DNA of 19,373 nucleotides, from IMG/VR virus record IMGVR_UViG_2617270959_000004; one strand, given 5' to 3'. The notes beneath the pieces were generated by a model. That model was not told where the DNA came from and did not search any database. It worked only from the letters and a program-made list of their open reading frames with translations. This DNA comes from a virus (taxonomy: Duplodnaviria > Heunggongvirae > Uroviricota > Caudoviricetes). This document shows positions 9,146 to 19,373 of the stretch, in pieces. Numbering within the stretch: the stretch's first letter is position 1; each line of letters starts with the position of its first letter. Position numbers and translations under genes: made by a program.

Positions 9146-9165
9146 CAGGACGATACTCATCATTT

Positions 9166-9189
9166 GCCCCGGTTATGCGGGGCTTTTTT
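9166..9189 (+). terminator. Candidate intrinsic terminator/attenuator between V and G
   Basis: GCCCCG-GUUAUG-CGGGGC hairpin followed by six T, 21 nt after the V stop. Confidence 0.55.
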
Positions 9190-9205
9190 GCAGGTGGAGA
9201 ACATG

Positions 9206-9592
9206 ATGTTTCTGAAACAGGACACGTTTAATTATGAAAAACAGTCCGTGGTGCTCAGTGAGCTGTCCGGGCTGCAGAGAATTGAATATCTGACGTTTGT
9301 TCAGCAGCGAACGGCAAAGTTTTATGCCGTGGAGGGAGAACTGCCGGAGGCTGAACGACAGATTGCTTTTCTGCGGATGGGGATGGATATCAATGCCTGG
9401 CTGGTTTCCCGCTCACTGTGGAATGCGGATCAGTCTAAGGATGTAGAGACGCTTTGCGCATCCGTTATTACAACATGGTCGTATGATGCCCTGGGTGCGG
9501 GGGCGGAGATGGTTCTGTCGCTGAGCGGTATGGGGGCCATTGATAATGCCGTGGATGATGAGCATGAGGCGCTGACGCCGGAAAAGTCCTGA
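9206..9592 (+). CDS. G: Tail assembly chaperone G
   Basis: GGAG at 9196-9199; begins MFLK... like lambda gpG; 128 aa; stop TGA 9590-9592. Confidence 0.85.
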   Translation: MFLKQDTFNYEKQSVVLSELSGLQRIEYLTFVQQRTAKFYAVEGELPEAERQIAFLRMGMDINAWLVSRSLWNADQSKDVETLCASVITTWSYDALGAGAEMVLSLSGMGAIDNAVDDEHEALTPEKS

Positions 9593-9930
9593 CGCGGGAA
9601 ATGCAGTTTGTCATGCGGCTTGCCCGGGAGTTCCGGCGGGCAGACTGGCGGCGGATGCTGTCGGAAATGTCGGCCACTGAGCTTGGTGAGTGGGGCGATT
9701 ATTTCCGGATGCAGAGCTTCAGTGATGTGTGGATGGATGCGCAGTTTGCCTCGCTGAAGGCATTGATCGTGAGAATGGTGTCCGGCAGCAGTGATGCTGC
9801 GGTGGCTGATTTCAGCCTTTTACCGGAAGAGAACGGGATACCGGAGCGAACGGACGAAGAACTGATGCATCTTGGGGAAGGTATTTCCGGAGGTGTGCGT
9901 TATGGACCAGATAGCCAACCTGGTCATTGA
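9568..9930 (+). CDS. T: Tail assembly protein T reading frame, expressed as a G-T fusion by -1 frameshift
   Basis: The -1 frame is open only from 9568 (TGA at 9565-9567) and overlaps the last 22 nt of G; no independent SD; arrangement is that of lambda G/G-T. Confidence 0.7.
   Translation, partial: GADAGKVLTREMQFVMRLAREFRRADWRRMLSEMSATELGEWGDYFRMQSFSDVWMDAQFASLKALIVRMVSGSSDAAVADFSLLPEENGIPERTDEELMHLGEGISGGVRYGPDSQPGH
9580..9586 (+). other. Candidate -1 frameshift (slippery) heptamer G GAA AAG for G-T
   Basis: It is the only A-rich heptamer within the 22-nt G/T overlap; lambda uses G GGA AAG at the equivalent place. Confidence 0.5.
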
Positions 9931-12900
9931 TTTGGGGATTGATGCGGCAGAGTTTAAAAATGAAATTCCCCGTATCAAAAACCTTCTGAATGGTGCAGCC
10001 AGCGATGCAGAACGGTCTTCTGCCCGTATGCAGCGTTTTATGGAGCGTCAGACTCAGGCCGCCCGGCAGACAACGCAGGCAGCTTCTTCGGCTGCAACAG
10101 CCGCATCCGTCCATGCGCAGACGGTGGAGAAGAACGCACAGGCTCATGAACGCATGGCCCGCGAGGTGGAGAAAACCCGCCAGCGCATGGAGGCACTGAG
10201 CCAGAAAATGCGCGAGGAACAGGCGCAGGCCATCGCTCTGGCGGAGGCTCAGGATAAAGCGGCTGCTGCGTTTTATCGTCAGATTGACAGTGTGAAACAG
10301 GCCAGTGCGGGGCTGCAGGAATTACAGCGTATTCAGCAGCAGATCCGACAGGCCAGAAACAGTGGCGGGGTTGGTCAGCAGGATTATCTGGCGCTGATTT
10401 CTGAGGTTACGGCGAAAACCCGTGTTCTTACGCAGGCTGAGGCAGAGGCTACCCGACAGAAAGTGGCGTTTATCCGTCAGCTTAAAGAGCAGGCAACCCG
10501 CCAGAATCTTTCTTCTTCTGAGTTGCTTCGTGCCAGGGCTGCCCAGCTGGGGGTAAGCAGTGCTGCAGAAGTGTATATCCGCAAAATGGAGCGGGCAGGA
10601 AAAGCCACGCATTCGCTGGGTCTGAAAAGTGCAGCGGCCCGCCAGGAGATAGGCGTTCTGATAGGTGAACTGGCCCGCGGCAATTTAGGGGCGCTGAGGG
10701 GATCCGGGATAACGCTGGCTAACCGTGCCGGATGGATAGACACACTGATGTCACCGAAAGGCATGATGCTGGGCGGGGTTATTGGCGGTATTACCGCGGC
10801 CGTCTATGGTCTGGGTAAAGCCTGGTATGACGGTCAGAAGGAGGGGGAAGAATTTAACCGCCAGCTGTCGCTGACGGGGCATTATGCCGGAGTCACTGCC
10901 GGGCAGCTGTGGACGCTCAGTCGTGCTATTTCCGGGAATGGTATCACGCAACATGCTGCAGCCGGTGCGCTGGCTCAGGTGGTGGGGAGTGGTGCATTTC
11001 GTGGAAACGATATCGGTATGGTGGCGAGAGCTGCCGCACAGATGGAGCGATCGGTTGGCCAGTCGGTCAGCGATACCATAAATCAGTTTAAGCGGCTGAA
11101 GGATGATCCTGTAAATGCCGCGAAGTCTCTGGACAATGAGCTGCATTTTCTTACTGCCACTCAGCTTGAGCAGATACGCGTCCTTGGAGAGCAGGGGCGG
11201 TCCAGTGATGCGGCACGGATAGCCATGTCTGCACTGGCAGAGGAAACCGGTCGGCGTACTGCGGATATTGATAATAACCTCAATGCGCTGGGCAGTACGC
11301 TGCAAACTTTGTCTGACTGGTGGAAGCAGTTCTGGGATGCGGCCATGAATATTGGTCGTGAAGATTCGCTGGATGCGCAGATTGCCACTTTGCAGGAGAA
11401 AGTGTCGCGGGCGAAAAGACTCCCCTGGACGGCATCATCTTCTCAGGTTGAATACGATCAGCAGCGTCTTAACGATCTTCAGGAGAAAAAACGCCAGAAG
11501 GATTTGCAGGATGCAAAAGAGCAGGCAGAGCGGAATTATCAGGAGCAACAGAAACGCCGTAATGCTGAAAATGCTGCACTGAACCGGATGAATGAAACGG
11601 AAGCTGCACGACATCAGCGTGAAATTGCGCGTATTAATGCCATGCAGTACGCCGATCAGGCTGTCAGGGATGCGGCGATACAACGTGAAAATGAACGTTA
11701 CGAGAAAGCCCTGGCATCCGGTAAGAAAAAAACACGCGAAACCCGTAATGATGAGGCCACCCGGTTATTGCTGCAGTACAGTCAGCAACAGGCACAGGTG
11801 GAAGGACAGATTGCTGCTGCCAGACAGTCAGCAGGCATTGCCACGGAAAGGATGACAGAAGCGCATAAACAGCTCCTGGCTCTGCAGCAGCGCATCAGCG
11901 ACCTGGACGGGAAAAAACTGACGGCAGATGAAAAGAGTGTGCTGGCCCGTAAAGATGAACTGATTCAGGCACTGACGCTGCTGGATGTAAAACAGCAGGA
12001 GCTTCAGAAACAGACGGCACTCAACGAGCTGAAGAAAAAAACAATTCAGCTGACCAGTCAACTGGCTGAAGAAGAGCGCGCTCAGCGTCAGCAACATGAC
12101 CTGGATATCGCCACGGTGGGTATGGGTGATCAGCAGCGACAGCGATATCAGGTACAACTGAGTCTTCGCCAGAAATACCAGCAACAGCTGGAGCAGTTGA
12201 GGCGGGATAGTGAGCAGAAAGGGACATATAACACGGATGACTACAGAAAGGCCGAGCAGGCGCTGACGGAGAGCCTGAACCGACAACTGAATGAGAATCG
12301 CCGTTACTGGCAACAGCTTGAAGTTGTGCAGGGTAACTGGAAAAACGGAGTCCTGCGTGCATTTCAGGATTTTACCGTGGATGCAGATAATACGGCAGAA
12401 ACAGCAGAACAGGTGTTCTCGTCAGCCTTCAGCAACATGGGAAATGGCCTGGCAACTTTTGTCACTACCGGCAAACTCAATTTCAAATCCTTCACCTCTT
12501 CTGTGCTGTCAGATATGGCGAAAATCCTGGCGCAGGCAACCATGATGAAATCGATAAAAGGGATTGGCAGTGTACTGGGATTTGATCTCAGCAGCCTTTC
12601 CCTGAATGCCAATGGGGGGATTTATCAGTCTGCTGATTTGAGTCGTTACAGTGGCACGGTGGTTAACCGTCCGACGTTTTTTGCTTTTGCAAAAGGCGCG
12701 GGTGTGATGGGGGAAGCGGGACCTGAAGCCATTCTGCCATTGCGTCGTGGTGCTGACGGTAAGCTGGGGGTTGTGGCGGATATTGGGGGTTCAGGTATGG
12801 CGATGTTTTCCCCGCAGTACAACATCGAGATCAATAACGATGGCACGAACGGGCAGATAGGTCCGGCTGCCCTGAAGGCGGTTTATGACCTCGGGAAAAA

Positions 12901-12967
12901 AGCGGCAGCGGACTTTATGCAACAGCAGGCCCGTGATGGTGGTCGGTTAAGTGGAGCATATCGGTAA
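9902..12967 (+). CDS. H: Tail tape measure protein H (1021 aa)
   Basis: GGAGG at 9889-9893; long Ala/Gln/Arg-rich coiled-coil-like protein; C-terminal region resembles lambda gpH; located between G-T and M. Confidence 0.9.
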   Translation: MDQIANLVIDLGIDAAEFKNEIPRIKNLLNGAASDAERSSARMQRFMERQTQAARQTTQAASSAATAASVHAQTVEKNAQAHERMAREVEKTRQRMEALSQKMREEQAQAIALAEAQDKAAAAFYRQIDSVKQASAGLQELQRIQQQIRQARNSGGVGQQDYLALISEVTAKTRVLTQAEAEATRQKVAFIRQLKEQATRQNLSSSELLRARAAQLGVSSAAEVYIRKMERAGKATHSLGLKSAAARQEIGVLIGELARGNLGALRGSGITLANRAGWIDTLMSPKGMMLGGVIGGITAAVYGLGKAWYDGQKEGEEFNRQLSLTGHYAGVTAGQLWTLSRAISGNGITQHAAAGALAQVVGSGAFRGNDIGMVARAAAQMERSVGQSVSDTINQFKRLKDDPVNAAKSLDNELHFLTATQLEQIRVLGEQGRSSDAARIAMSALAEETGRRTADIDNNLNALGSTLQTLSDWWKQFWDAAMNIGREDSLDAQIATLQEKVSRAKRLPWTASSSQVEYDQQRLNDLQEKKRQKDLQDAKEQAERNYQEQQKRRNAENAALNRMNETEAARHQREIARINAMQYADQAVRDAAIQRENERYEKALASGKKKTRETRNDEATRLLLQYSQQQAQVEGQIAAARQSAGIATERMTEAHKQLLALQQRISDLDGKKLTADEKSVLARKDELIQALTLLDVKQQELQKQTALNELKKKTIQLTSQLAEEERAQRQQHDLDIATVGMGDQQRQRYQVQLSLRQKYQQQLEQLRRDSEQKGTYNTDDYRKAEQALTESLNRQLNENRRYWQQLEVVQGNWKNGVLRAFQDFTVDADNTAETAEQVFSSAFSNMGNGLATFVTTGKLNFKSFTSSVLSDMAKILAQATMMKSIKGIGSVLGFDLSSLSLNANGGIYQSADLSRYSGTVVNRPTFFAFAKGAGVMGEAGPEAILPLRRGADGKLGVVADIGGSGMAMFSPQYNIEINNDGTNGQIGPAALKAVYDLGKKAAADFMQQQARDGGRLSGAYR

Positions 12968-13296
12968 TGGAGACGTTTCACTGGAAAGTGCGCCCGGATA
13001 TGAATGTGGTATCAGAGCCGAAAGTGGTGACAGTGAAGCTGGGCGATGGTTATGAACAGCGTCGTGCGGCGGGACTGAATAACCAGTTGTCGACTTACAG
13101 CGTGACGATACGTGTTCGTAAATGTGAACACCCATCTTTAAAAGCCTTTCTGGAACGGCACGGTGGCGTCCGTGCATTTCAGTGGACGCCACCTTATGAC
13201 TGGAAACCGATCAGGGTGGTTTGTCGTAAATGGTCGGCAAGCGTGGGGGCGCTGTGGGTAACCATAACGGCAGATTTTGAACAGGTCGTGGCATAG
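12967..13296 (+). CDS. M: Minor tail protein M
   Basis: TAATG overlap with the H stop; translation aligns with remembered lambda gpM over its full length. Confidence 0.92.
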   Translation: METFHWKVRPDMNVVSEPKVVTVKLGDGYEQRRAAGLNNQLSTYSVTIRVRKCEHPSLKAFLERHGGVRAFQWTPPYDWKPIRVVCRKWSASVGALWVTITADFEQVVA

Positions 13297-13305
13297 GAGG
13301 CTCTG

Positions 13306-14004
13306 ATGCAGGATATTCCACAGGAAACACATCATGAGACGACACGCCTCACTCAGTCAGCCCAGGTGGTGCTCTGGGAAATCGATCTGACAGAGGTCGG
13401 TGGTGAACGTTATTTTTTCTGTAATGAGCAGAACGAAAAAGGTGAGCCGGTTACCTGGCAGGGGCGGCAGTATCAGGCATACCCCATTCAGGGGACGGGA
13501 TTTAAACTGAACGGCAAGGGCAGTGCTGCCCGTCCGACACTGACGGTTTCTAACCTGCACGGAATGGTCACCGGGATGGCGGAAGACCTGCAGAGTCTGG
13601 TCGGCGGAACGGTGGTCAGGCGTAAGGTTTACGCCCGTTTTCTGGATGCGGTGAACTTCGTCAACGGAAACAGTGACGCCGATCCGGAGCAGGAGGTGAT
13701 CAGCCGCTGGCGCATCGAGCAGTGCAGCGAACTGAGCGCGGTCAGTGCCTCTTTTGTACTGTCCACGCCGACGGAAACGGACGGTGCTGTTTTTCCGGGG
13801 CGCATCATGCTGGCTAATACCTGCACCTGGACCTATCGCGGTGATGAGTGCGGTTATCACGGTCCGGCGGTCGCGGATGAATATGACCAGCCGACGTCCG
13901 ATATCACGAAGGATAAATGCAGCAAATGCCTGAGTGGTTGTAAGTTTCGCAATAACGTCGGCAACTTTGGCGGCTTCCTTTCCATTAACAAACTTTCGCA
14001 GTGA
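13306..14004 (+). CDS. L: Minor tail protein L
   Basis: GGAGG upstream; translation is nearly identical to remembered lambda gpL. Confidence 0.95.
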   Translation: MQDIPQETHHETTRLTQSAQVVLWEIDLTEVGGERYFFCNEQNEKGEPVTWQGRQYQAYPIQGTGFKLNGKGSAARPTLTVSNLHGMVTGMAEDLQSLVGGTVVRRKVYARFLDAVNFVNGNSDADPEQEVISRWRIEQCSELSAVSASFVLSTPTETDGAVFPGRIMLANTCTWTYRGDECGYHGPAVADEYDQPTSDITKDKCSKCLSGCKFRNNVGNFGGFLSINKLSQ

Positions 14005-14009
14005 ATCCC

Positions 14010-14753
14010 ATGACAGAGACAGAATCAGCGATTCTGGCGCACGCCCGGCGATGTGCGCCAGCGGAGTCGTGCGGCTTCGTGGTGAGAACACCGGAGGGGG
14101 AAAGATATTTTCCCTGCGTGAATATCTCCGGTGAGCCGGAGGAGTATTTCCGGATGTCGCCGGAGGACTGGCTGCGGGCAGAGATGCAGGGTGAGATTGT
14201 GGCGCTGGTCCACAGCCACCCCGGTGGTATGCCCTGGCTGAGTGAGACCGACCGGCGGCTGCAGGTGCAGAGTGATTTGCCGTGGTGGCTGGTTTGCCGG
14301 GGAGCGATTCACAAGTTCCGCTGTGTGCCACATCTTTCCGGGCGGCGCTTTGAGCACGGGGTGACGGACTGTTACACGCTGTTCCGGGATGCTTACCATC
14401 TGGCGGGGATTGAGATGCCGGATTTTCATCGCGAGGATGACTGGTGGCGTAACGGTCAGAATCTCTATCTGGATAATCTGGAGGCCACAGGGCTGTATCA
14501 GGTGCCGTTGTCAGCGGCGCAGCCGGGCGATGTGCTGCTGTGCTGTTTTGGTTCATCGGTGCCGAATCATGCCGCCATTTACTGTGGTGACAGCGAGCTG
14601 CTGCACCATATTCCTGAACAACTGAGCAAACGAGAGAGGTACACCGACAAATGGCAGCGACGCACACACTCCCTCTGGCGTCACCGGGCATGGCACGCAT
14701 CTGCCTTTACGGGGATTTACAACGATTTGGCCGCCGCATCGACCTTCGAGTGA
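14010..14753 (+). CDS. K: Tail tip assembly protein K (MPN/JAMM + NlpC/P60 domains)
   Basis: JAMM motif HSHP at 14211-14222 with downstream S..D; NlpC/P60-type Cys at 14370-14372 and His further on; start could instead be GTG 14001; 3' end overlaps I by 103 nt. Confidence 0.88.
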   Translation: MTETESAILAHARRCAPAESCGFVVRTPEGERYFPCVNISGEPEEYFRMSPEDWLRAEMQGEIVALVHSHPGGMPWLSETDRRLQVQSDLPWWLVCRGAIHKFRCVPHLSGRRFEHGVTDCYTLFRDAYHLAGIEMPDFHREDDWWRNGQNLYLDNLEATGLYQVPLSAAQPGDVLLCCFGSSVPNHAAIYCGDSELLHHIPEQLSKRERYTDKWQRRTHSLWRHRAWHASAFTGIYNDLAAASTFE

Positions 14754-15358: not shown

Positions 15359-18300
15359 ATGGGTAAAGGCAGCAGTAAGGGGCATACTCCGCGCGAAGCG
15401 AAGGACAACCTGAAGTCCACGCAGTTGCTGAGTGTGATCGATGCCATCAGCGAAGGGCCGGTTGAAGGTCCGGTAGATGGATTAAAAAGCGTGCTGCTGA
15501 ACAGTACGCCAGTGCTGGACATTGAGGGGAATACCAACATCTCCGGCGTCACGGTGGTGTTCCGGGCCGGTGAGCAGGAGCAAACACCGCCGGAGGGATT
15601 TGAATCCTCCGGCTCCGAGACGGTGCTGGGTACGGAAGTGAAATACGACACGCCGATCACCCGGACCATCACGTCGGCAAACATTGACCGACTGCGTTTT
15701 ACCTTCGGCGTGCAGGCACTGGTGGAAACCACCTCAAAGGGGGACAGGAATCCGTCGGAAGTCCGCCTGCTGGTTCAGATACAACGTAACGGTGGCTGGG
15801 TGACGGAAAAAGACATCACCATTAAAGGCAAAACCACCTCACAGTATCTGGCCTCGGTGGTGGTGGGTAACCTGCCGCCGCGCCCGTTCAATATCCGGAT
15901 GCGCAGGATGACGCCGGACAGCACCACAGACCAACTGCAGAACAAAACGCTCTGGTCGTCATACACCGAAATCATCGATGTGAAACAGTGCTACCCGAAC
16001 ACGGCACTGGTTGGCGTGCAGGTGGACTCGGAGCAGTTCGGCAGCCAGCAGGTGAGCCGTAATTATCATCTTCGCGGGCGCATTCTGCAGGTGCCGTCGA
16101 ACTATAACCCGCAGACGCGGCAATACAGCGGTATCTGGGACGGAACGTTTAAGCCGGCATACAGCAACAACATGGCCTGGTGTCTGTGGGATATGCTGAC
16201 CCATCCGCGCTACGGCATGGGGAAACGTCTTGGTGCGGCAGATGTGGATAAATGGACGCTGTATGTCATCGGCCAGAATTGCGACCAGTCGGTGCCGGAC
16301 GGCTTTGGCGGCACGGAGCCGCGCATCACCTGTAATGCGTACCTGACCACGCAGCGTAAGGCGTGGGATGTGCTCAGTGATTTCTGCTCGGCGATGCGCT
16401 GTATGCCGGTATGGAACGGGCAGACGCTGACGTTCGTGCAGGACCGACCGTCGGATAAGGTGTGGACCTATAACCGCAGTAATGTGGTGATGCCGGATGA
16501 TGGCGCGCCGTTCCGCTACAGCTTCAGCGCCCTGAAGGACCGCCATAATGCCGTTGAGGTGAACTGGATTGACCCGGATAACGGCTGGGAAACGGCAACA
16601 GAGCTTGTGGAGGACACGCAGGCCATTGCCCGTTACGGTCGTAACGTCACGAAGATGGATGCTTTTGGCTGTACCAGCCGGGGGCAGGCACACCGCGCCG
16701 GGCTGTGGCTGATTAAAACGGAACTGCTGGAAACGCAGACCGTGGACTTCAGCGTGGGCGCAGAAGGGCTTCGCCATGTACCGGGCGATGTCATTGAAAT
16801 CTGTGATGATGACTATGCCGGTATCAGCATCGGTGGTCGCGTGCTGGCGGTGAACAGCCAGACCCGGACGCTGACGCTCGACCGTGAAATCACGCTGCCA
16901 TCCTCCGGTACCACGCTGATAAGCCTGGTTGACGGAAGTGGCAATCCGGTCAGCGTGGAGGTTCAGTCCGTCACCGACGGCGTGAAGGTAAAAGTGAGCC
17001 GTGTTCCTGACGGTGTTGCTGAATACAGCGTATGGGGGCTGAAGCTGCCGACGCTGCGCCAGCGTCTGTTCCGCTGTGTGAGTATCCGTGAGAACGATGA
17101 CGGTACGTATGCCATCACTGCCGTGCAGCATGTACCGGAGAAAGAAGCCATCGTGGATAACGGGGCGCACTTTGACGGTGACCAGAGCGGCACGGTGAAT
17201 GGTGTCACGCCGCCAGCAGTGCAGCACCTGACCGCAGAAGTCACTGCAGACAGCGGGGAATATCAGGTGCTGGCGCGATGGGACACACCGAAGGTGGTGA
17301 AGGGCGTGAGCTTCCTGCTTCGCCTGACCGTGGCAGCGGATGACGGCAGTGAGCGGCTGGTCAGCACGGCCCGGACGACGGAAACCACTTACCGCTTCAC
17401 ACAACTGGCTCTGGGGAACTACAGGCTGACAGTCCGGGCAGTAAATGCGTGGGGGCAGCAGGGCGATCCGGCGTCGGTATCGTTCCGGATTGCCGCACCG
17501 GCAGCGCCGTCGCGGATTGAGCTGACGCCGGGCTATTTTCAGATAACCGCCACGCCGCATCTTGCGGTTTATGATCCGACGGTACAGTTTGAGTTCTGGT
17601 TCTCGGAAAAACGGATTGCTGATATCAGGCAGGTTGAAACCAGCGCGCGTTATCTTGGTACGGCGCTGTACTGGATAGCCGCCAGTATCAATATCAAACC
17701 GGGTCGTGATTATTACTTTTATATCCGCAGTGTGAACACCGTCGGCAAATCGGCATTCGTGGAGGCTGTTGGTCGGGCGAGCGATGATGCGGAAGGTTAC
17801 CTGGATTTTTTCAAAGGCCAGATAACCGAATCCCATCTCGGCAAGGAGCTGCTGGAAAAAGTCGAGCTGACGGAGGATAACGCCAGCAGACTGGAGGAGT
17901 TTTCGAAAGAGTGGAAGGACGCCAGTGATAAGTGGAATGCCATGTGGGGCGTCAAAATTGAGCAGACCAAAGACGGCAAACATTATGTCGCGGGTATTGG
18001 CCTCAGTATGGAGGATACAGAGGAAGGCAAACTGAGTCAGTTTCTGGTTGCCGCCAATCGTATCGCGTTTATTGACCCGGCAAACGGGAATGAAACGCCG
18101 ATGTTTGTGGCGCAGGGCAACCAGATATTCATGAACGACGTGTTCCTGAAACGCCTGACGGCCCCCACCATTACCAGCGGCGGTAATCCTCCGGCATTTT
18201 CCCTGACACCGGACGGGCGGCTGACGGCGAAAAATGCCGATATCAGCGGTAACGTGAATGCGAACTCCGGGACGCTCAACAACGTCACGATTAACGAAAA

Positions 18301-18754
18301 CTGTCGGGTTCTGGGAAAACTGTCCGCCAACCAGATTGAAGGCGATCTCGTTAAAACAGTGGGCAAAGCTTTCCCCCGGGACTCCCGTGCACCGGAGCGG
18401 TGGCCATCAGGGACCATTACCGTCAGGGTTTATGACGATCAGCCGTTTGACCGGCAGATTGTTATTCCGGCGGTGGCATTCAGCGGCGCTAAACATGAGA
18501 AAGAGCATACTGATATTTACTCCTCATGCCGTCTGATAGTGCGGAAAAACGGTGCTGAAATTTATAACCGTACCGCGCTGGATAATACGCTGATTTACAG
18601 TGGCGTTATTGATATGCCTGCCGGTCACGGTCACATGACGCTGGAGTTTTCGGTGTCAGCATGGCTGGTAAATGACTGGTATCCCACAGCAAGTATCAGC
18701 GATTTGCTGGTTGTGGTGATGAAGAAAGCCACCGCAGGCATCAGTATCAGCTGA
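15359..18754 (+). CDS. J: Central tail fibre / host specificity protein J
   Basis: GGAG at 15347-15350; 1131 aa; N-terminal ~980 residues nearly identical to remembered lambda gpJ; C-terminal ~150 residues diverged. Confidence 0.95.
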
Positions 18755-18772
18755 ATTTTATAACCCATATAC

Positions 18773-18798
18773 GGGCGCCAGAAATGGCGCCTTTTTTA
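18773..18798 (+). terminator. Intrinsic terminator downstream of J
   Basis: GGCGCC-AGAAAU-GGCGCC perfect 6-bp GC stem followed by six T, 20 nt after the J stop. Confidence 0.7.
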
Positions 18799-18821
18799 TT
18801 GCAGAAAAGCGAGAGGTAATT

Positions 18822-19373
18822 ATGCGTAAAGTTTGTGCAGCCATTTTGTCCGCAGCCATCTGTCTGTCCGTATCCGGTGCGCCTGCATGGGCATCTGAAC
18901 ATCAGTCCACGCTGAGCGCGGGGTATCTTCATGCCTCGACGAACGTTCCCGGCAGCGATGATCTTAACGGGATTAACGTGAAATACCGTTATGAGTTTAC
19001 GGACACACTGGGGCTGGTGACGTCATTCAGCTATGCAGGAGACAAGAATCGCCAGCTTACCCGTTACAGCAATACCCGCTGGCATGAAGATTCCGTGCGT
19101 AACCGCTGGTTCAGCGTGATGGTGGGGCCGTCTGTGCGCGTGAATGAATGGTTCAGCGCGTATGCGATGGCGGGTATGGCTTACAGCCGTGTGTCGACTT
19201 TTTCCGGGGATTATCTCCGCGTAACTGACAATAAGGGGAAAACGCACGATGTGCTGACCGGAAGTGATGACGGTCGCCACAGCAACACGTCTCTGGCGTG
19301 GGGAGCTGGCGTGCAGTTTAACCCGACCGAATCCGTGGCCATTGATATTGCTTATGAAGGCTCCGGCAGTGGT
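18822..19373 (+). CDS. lom: Lom-family (Ail/PagC/OmpX-like) outer membrane protein, 3' end outside window
   Basis: GAGAGG SD 5 nt upstream; signal-peptide-like N-terminus ending AWA; aligns with remembered lambda Lom ([25 protein letters not shown]); frame is open to the window edge, so it is absent from the ORF track. Confidence 0.88.

Follow-up and report, generated by a model that had tools for sequence, protein, structure and literature searches.

The window analysed here is a stretch of 19,373 nucleotides from the IMG/VR virus record IMGVR_UViG_2617270959_000004 (Caudoviricetes). It ends inside an open reading frame that begins shortly after a tail tip gene J and runs off the right-hand edge. 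This locus raises the question of whether the incomplete frame belongs to an intact gene of the Lom outer membrane protein family and, if so, whether that gene is a moron expressed by the lysogen, as the initial annotation had proposed. We consider the segment to be the 5′ 92% of lom, the accessory gene that is located between J and stf in lambda-like E. coli prophages (probability of about 0.9); the bare identification of 18822-19373 as lom is nearly beyond doubt. Expression in the lysogen is not shown by this sequence.

According to the ORF list, the frame opens with an ATG at 18822-18824 and its 184 codons stay open up to the end of the window. The product scores 363 bits with the Pfam family Ail_Lom (PF06316), for which the cut-off is 23 bits (E 5e-109; the match covers positions 1-184 of the 199 in the model). 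This is far beyond chance. It also matches PHROG 108, "Lom outer membrane protein", with E 9e-99. The membership in the Lom family, which had been recognised from the letters of the sequence, is thereby confirmed. The fragment also matches the Pfam family OMP_b-brl (E 1.7e-18). Its best NCBIfam match is PRK15240, "resistance to complement killing" (E 2.6e-28); however, the score of 99 bits does not reach the Rck equivalog cut-off of 258 bits, and the OmpX equivalog cut-off (PRK09408) is missed as well (87 bits versus 176). Thus, the product is a member of the Lom-type family and an orthologue of neither Rck nor OmpX. The position of the gene is that of the lambda-type locus: it lies on the same strand as J, which ends 67 nt upstream, and the order J-lom-stf is seen in E. 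coli THO-008, PhiR30_1, and lambda. The gene indeed has a Shine-Dalgarno sequence of its own (Table 1), and the GAGAGGT motif at this site is also kept in lambda. The antisense ORFs 18747-18932 and 19023-19280, which overlap lom, have no Pfam match, and no family was matched in an Rfam scan of the whole window.

Table 1. Coordinates of the features in and around lom, given as positions in the window.
Feature	Coordinates	Strand	Basis
Tail tip gene J	15359..18754	+	Alignment with lambda J and annotation of a 99.9%-identical prophage
Intrinsic (rho-independent) terminator after J	18773..18800	+	Stem GGGCGCCA/TGGCGCCT, loop GAAA, then TTTTTTATT
Shine-Dalgarno sequence of lom, GAGAGG	18811..18816	+	GAGG core 5 nt before the ATG
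Coding sequence of lom, codons 1-184 of 199	18822..19373	+	PF06316, PHROG 108, 100% identical stretch of THO-008
Predicted Sec (SPase I) signal peptide, 24 residues	18822..18893	+	Cleavage predicted after AWA (AWA/S)
Predicted extracellular loop 1, residues 39-49	18936..18968	+	Inserted columns, entropy 2.9 bits
Predicted extracellular loop 2, residues 74-94	19041..19103	+	Entropy 3.25 bits, 15 inserted columns
Predicted extracellular loop 3 (longest), residues 121-157	19182..19292	+	Entropy 3.0 bits, gap fraction 0.21
Block diverged from lambda (35-65% DNA identity)	18250..19340	+	Sliding identity, THO-008 locus versus lambda NC_001416

Comparison with identical copies indicates that the end of the window cuts lom 16 codons before its natural stop. 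The chromosomes of E. coli THO-008 and several other strains are 100% identical to the window over 18822-19373 and 99.8% identical over 18300-19373. In THO-008, the frame continues to DWRTDGFIVGVGYKF and a stop codon, giving a protein of 199 aa that is annotated as "Ail/Lom family outer membrane beta-barrel protein". The THO-008 protein ends with FIVGVGYKF, and the same C-terminal aromatic ending, which lies beyond the window, is present in the 107 intact IMG/VR copies; the length is exactly 199 aa in 107 of the 123 related copies. A stop codon shortly after 19373, which the initial annotation had counted against the gene, does occur in the relatives at a distance of 16 codons, yet, given that the identical and near-identical copies are 199 aa long, it represents the normal end of the gene. 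The stop codon in these copies is followed by a terminator, GACAGCCCGCC-GGTTCA-GGCGGGC-TTTTTT, also outside the window, and then by the start of the side-tail-fibre gene stf. Beyond 19373, one can expect GACTGGCGCACTGACGGTTTCATCGTGGGTGTCGGTTATAAATTCTGA, then the hairpin with its T tract, and then the start of stf. The side tail fibre genes that had been foreseen just beyond the window are thus found in near-identical prophages and phages. That lom is a decayed or truncated pseudogene has a practically negligible probability: although no stop codon is visible within the window and a minority of the lom copies in the databases are frameshifted or truncated, all 184 codons are open, the identical copies are intact with 199 aa, and every position conserved in the family is retained.

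The closest known proteins are those of lambdoid and Stx prophages (PhiR30_1, CP-1639, Stx2a_WGPS8; PGAP WP_001615229.1), which are encoded by the same gene, are 199 aa in length, and have the same Shine-Dalgarno sequence. At the DNA level, the window lom shares 95-97% identity with deposited phages, and several E. coli chromosomes match it at 100%. These prophages share the J-terminator-lom-terminator-stf layout with the window locus and differ from it in nothing of substance; the window lom represents one of many alleles. Yersinia Ail (PDB 3QRA) and Salmonella Rck/PagC belong to the same family PF06316 and have the same small eight-stranded barrel, but they are encoded by chromosomal or plasmid virulence genes and not by genes of a prophage tail region. 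The loops of the window Lom cannot be aligned with those of Ail, Rck, and PagC, so their ligand specificities are not transferable. E. coli OmpX (PDB 1QJ8) is a homologous barrel; its eight strands align with those of Lom, and the T3 turn FNP.E and the C-terminal GVGY.F are common to both. However, OmpX is the product of a housekeeping gene and has much shorter loops 2 and 3.

The N-terminus of the product has the characteristics of the signal peptide that had been expected: an MRK start with two positive charges, a 16-residue hydrophobic core (mean Kyte-Doolittle value 2.15), and Ala residues at -3 and -1. The assignment was made by these features and not by a trained predictor. We rejected the possibility that the two signal-peptide Cys residues mark a lipoprotein, because a lipobox is absent and other alleles do not conserve these residues. 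The beta-barrel, also anticipated earlier, is supported by homology to barrels of known structure. When the full-length identical copy was compared with PDB sequences, lambda Lom (9wso_C, E 3e-49), OmpX (E 7e-18), and Yersinia Ail (E 1.5e-16) were matched, and the alignments cover residues 25-199 of the query.

Strands and loops were mapped on an alignment of 44 sequences, which included the full-length copy, lambda Lom, OmpX, and 41 diverse representatives (29-88% identity). Eight conserved segments without gaps (entropy 0.9-1.6 bits) have hydrophobic residues in alternation, the pattern of membrane strands. Four segments, between strands 1/2, 3/4, 5/6, and 7/8, contain every insertion and reach the highest entropy (2.7-3.3 bits). 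We take these four variable segments to be the counterparts of the extracellular loops of OmpX, with the extracellular side assigned from the OmpX structure. Strand 8 lies beyond the window and is seen only in the relatives. As judged from the alignment, Lom is predicted to be an eight-stranded outer-membrane barrel with four variable extracellular loops and three short periplasmic turns. An AlphaFold2 model of the 184-aa fragment, constructed from a 24-row alignment of sequences 76-89% identical, was unusable (pLDDT 31, pTM 0.18) owing to the shallow alignment and the truncated query; a Foldseek search with this model gave only matches with E > 0.2, which were disregarded. The topology of Lom therefore rests on homology and the alignment pattern.

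Lambda Lom (NP_040601, 206 aa; chain C of 9wso) has the same position between J and stf, the same family, the same type of signal peptide, and the same strand pattern, but the level of identity is 40% over the 184 residues encoded in the window. The strands are identical at 52 of 82 positions (63%), whereas loops 1-3 are identical at 16 of 69 (23%). By loop, the values are 2 of 11 for loop 1, where lambda has 8 extra residues, 4 of 21 for loop 2, and 10 of 37 for loop 3, in which OmpX is 17 residues shorter; all eight residues of loop 4 are identical (8/8). Strands 1 and 3 also share only 30% identity with lambda Lom. The kinship with lambda Lom and the divergence in the surface loops, both suggested by the initial annotation, are therefore supported, the latter for loops 1-3.

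The divergence from lambda is not confined to lom. The diverged block of about 1.1 kb (Table 1) comprises the C-terminal (receptor-binding) end of J, the J terminator, and lom codons 1 to about 173. To the left of it, J is 90-100% identical to lambda up to about 18240; to the right, from about 19345, the identity is 83-93% over the 3′ end of lom, its terminator, and the first ~450 nt of stf. The right-hand junction is located inside lom at about 19342 (TTGATATTGCTTATGAAGG...), and lambda shares near-identical DNA at loop 4, strand 8, the downstream terminator, and the stf start. A cross-tabulation of 105 IMG/VR loci revealed that three J C-terminal types, mutually less than 80% identical, precede the same 199-aa Lom type, and one Lom allele was found with all three of them. 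A functional matching of J and Lom was rejected on this ground; the association of J type and Lom is linkage only.

The 107 intact IMG/VR copies contain 93 distinct lom sequences with 83-100% identity. Close alleles differ mainly in the signal peptide, strand 1, the beginning of loop 2, and loop 1, which varies most. These segments appear to be shuffled from one allele to another, which suggests frequent recombination among the multiple prophage copies of a genome. A single locus (L079, 9053-10312) has a different sequence upstream of lom. It is a degraded prophage in which an N-terminal terminase fragment is joined by a deletion to the lom Shine-Dalgarno sequence, and its lom is truncated at 157 aa and lies beside a DNA invertase gene. 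At first sight this locus points to a mobile lom cassette; that idea was rejected, because the locus is what deletions have left of a prophage.

Elsewhere, the window consists of a standard head-tail module with the large terminase, portal, protease-capsid fusion, G/T chaperones, and tape measure; K- and I-like genes for minor tail and tail-assembly proteins precede J. Positions 1-709 are unmatched in the best-matching E. coli genomes, where the alignment begins at position 710. Two pieces of a transposase (phrog_720), ORFs 191-484 and 485-694, immediately precede the large terminase gene (925-3024). The small-terminase region seems to be bordered, or to have been replaced, by an IS element or what is left of one. 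A single ORF of 739 aa at 4494-6713 has PHROG matches to both the head-maturation-protease and major-head-protein families, and its counterpart in the relatives is annotated by PGAP as "ClpP-like prohead protease/major capsid protein fusion". Such a fusion sets the head module apart from that of lambda, whereas the tail module is lambda-like. The pair of G/T-type tail assembly chaperones (9164-9592 and 9601-9930), which is the usual site of a programmed -1 frameshift, precedes the tape measure gene. Long antisense ORFs were noted inside J (15959-17983, minus strand, 674 aa) and in the L/K region (13357-14700, minus strand, 447 aa); they are probably by-products of a G+C-rich coding strand. In THO-008, the near-identical prophage ends downstream of the tail fibre genes (region 11119-13074 of locus L001), beside pinQ, ydfK, ynfT, and a truncated ydfJ. 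This neighbourhood is the Qin/Kim prophage locus in the numbering of E. coli K-12.

The ORF list places the start of J at an upstream GTG (15314); the real start was taken to be the one given in Table 1, and the TGA stop occupies 18752-18754. Residues 1-1131 of lambda J align with residues 16-1145 of the ORF (2340 bits), and the C-terminus is diverged from lambda over the last ~170 aa (55% identity over the last 200 aa). Behind J, the terminator scan detected a hairpin at 18773-18792 with eight pairs, six of them G-C, and a 4-nt loop, followed by the T tract; it is terminator-like on the plus strand only. The 67-nt J-lom intergenic RNA folds to -18.6 kcal/mol (z = -2.67 versus shuffled sequences). 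Homologous intergenic sequences were taken from IMG/VR contigs with the same lom start, which gave 24 distinct versions, 17 of which were aligned. In these 17 distinct sequences, the stem is paired in 97% of the cells, versus 32-61% when the 3′ partners are slid. Compensatory double changes were observed at two stem pairs (G-C to A-U and C-G to U-A; 8 cells), and the stem variants in the relatives include GCGCC/GGCGC, GCGTC/GACGC, and GCACC/GGTGC. Lambda has another hairpin with a T tract, different in sequence, at the same place after J. The preserved pairing and the different hairpin of lambda at this place indicate that the structure is conserved and not the sequence, as expected for a working intrinsic terminator. 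The J-distal terminator is under structural selection. Its presence between J and lom, pointed out in the initial annotation, agrees with the scan, the folding energy, and the compensatory changes.

The same annotation had called lom a lysogen-expressed moron. The Shine-Dalgarno sequence and the terminators on both sides of the gene, the upstream one in the window and the downstream one in identical relatives, agree with this label. The two other classical hallmarks of a moron, its own promoter and a foreign composition, were not seen. A sigma-70 consensus scan of 18400-19373 found 0 sites, although such scans may miss a weak or non-canonical promoter, and with a home-made PWM the best score in 18400-18830 was 6.2, lower than the median best score of the shuffled sequences (8.5). 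Only about 10 nt separate the end of the T tract (18800) from the Shine-Dalgarno sequence (18811), so a promoter cannot fit there, and any promoter would have to lie upstream of the terminator or overlap it. The GC content is 55.1% for lom, 56.7% for J, and 54.6% for the window, and GC3 is 60% for lom versus 67% for J; a base composition foreign to the neighbouring genes was not found in lom. Hence, the case for autonomous lysogen-specific expression rests on the lambda and phi24B literature and not on this sequence. RNA polymerase modified by Q passes the terminators of the late operon, which makes late co-transcription of lom with J almost certain.

A possible mode of action can be outlined from the family and from lambda. 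Sec would export the Lom precursor, cleavage would occur after AWA24, and BAM would insert the protein via the C-terminal GYKF signal located just beyond the window. During lytic growth, lom would be read on the Q-antiterminated late transcript, with the J terminator ignored, and in lysogens small amounts of Lom would be made from an as yet unmapped promoter; its loops on the cell surface may then alter the adhesive properties of the lysogen. The outer-membrane localisation of lambda Lom goes back to Reeve & Shaw 1979, as cited in PMC3342100, and adhesion to buccal epithelial cells is the only phenotype reported for lambda Lom. Since loops 1-3, the expected ligand-binding parts, are so different from those of lambda, the adhesion phenotype is not confidently transferable, and we would give a role of this allele in adhesion or lysogenic conversion an even chance.

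Several other readings of the gene should be weighed. In the strictest sense of the word moron, lom would have its own promoter active in the repressed prophage, the J terminator would insulate it, and it would serve mainly the benefit of the lysogen. The own Shine-Dalgarno sequence and the flanking terminators are in line with this, as are published data on related phages: according to PMC7067206, which cites Barondess & Beckwith 1990 and Vica Pacheco 1997, lambda lom is expressed in lysogens and has a link to adhesion, and phi24B lom is expressed equally in lysogeny and induction, i.e., its expression is uncoupled from induction (PMC3342100). Moreover, plaque formation does not need lom, and its knock-down has no plaque phenotype (PMC10695390). 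Nevertheless, this reading is possible but on the whole doubtful, as there is no promoter-like site within 420 nt upstream, any promoter would have to be placed before or across the terminator, and the composition of lom is close to that of J and the window. In one microarray study of a lambda lysogen, lom went undetected, and little is known of the lom promoter, which is unmapped even in lambda (PMC2147009). Another reading makes lom a passenger of the late operon with a phage-directed role, transcribed with J and stf by Q-antiterminated read-through and acting during or after lytic growth; for example, the surface of the dying cell or its vesicles might be altered against the loss of progeny on debris, or related phages might be excluded. 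We find this unlikely. The fixed place of lom inside the tail-fibre region of thousands of prophages, the absence of a recognisable promoter of its own, and the replacement of the receptor-binding end of J and the Lom body as one block compared with lambda all fit it; on the other hand, the occurrence of the same Lom allele with three J C-terminal types contradicts a tight J-Lom matching, the knock-down mentioned above is without a plaque phenotype, and a search for supporting literature found none.

The initial annotation had also linked the Lom/Ail/PagC proteins to both adhesion and serum resistance. Serum resistance is documented for Ail and Rck; to our knowledge, it is not documented for Lom itself. 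In lambda, this property maps to bor and not to lom (PMC12656833). Thus, the adhesion part of the statement stands for lambda Lom, while the serum-resistance part applies to Ail, Rck, and lambda Bor. That the window Lom acts like Rck or Ail by binding complement regulators via loops 2 and 3 is quite unlikely, despite the shared Pfam family and the best NCBIfam match to PRK15240: the protein is an equivalog of neither Rck nor OmpX, its loops have unrelated sequences and far exceed those of OmpX in length, and the bor assignment in lambda also contradicts this role. The replacement of the J end and Lom from the signal peptide through strand 7 as one block, together with the absence of a visible promoter, leaves open a late-operon, adsorption-linked reading; still, it is highly improbable that Lom is a late-operon protein partnering the adsorption apparatus (by receptor masking or debris/vesicle marking) and not a host virulence factor. 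A structure of lambda Lom is represented by one entry in the 2026 PDB copy, 9wso, which is multi-chain and contains two Lom chains. A paper on 9wso was not found in the literature, and the entry is not among the J-protein PDB entries; it might carry new functional information on Lom, including on the adsorption-linked reading.

Whichever role lom has, it is a widespread gene. DNA at least 80% identical to lom is present at 14,281 places in 4,668 of 5,426 complete E. coli genomes (about 86%; the median number per genome is 2 and the maximum 13), and in 207 phage records, mostly of lambdoid and Stx-converting phages. In a collection of 5.8 billion proteins, lom-type clusters have up to 24,859 member sequences, and the whole family is represented by 392 sequences at 50% clustering (E <= 0.001), which is consistent with an enterobacterial family. 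The gene has been known since 1979. The window therefore contains a textbook gene in a textbook place, already known and automatically annotated by PGAP and PHROGs. What the locus brings to attention is that the allele class dominant in E. coli prophages is only 40% identical to the textbook lambda Lom, mainly through loops 1-3.
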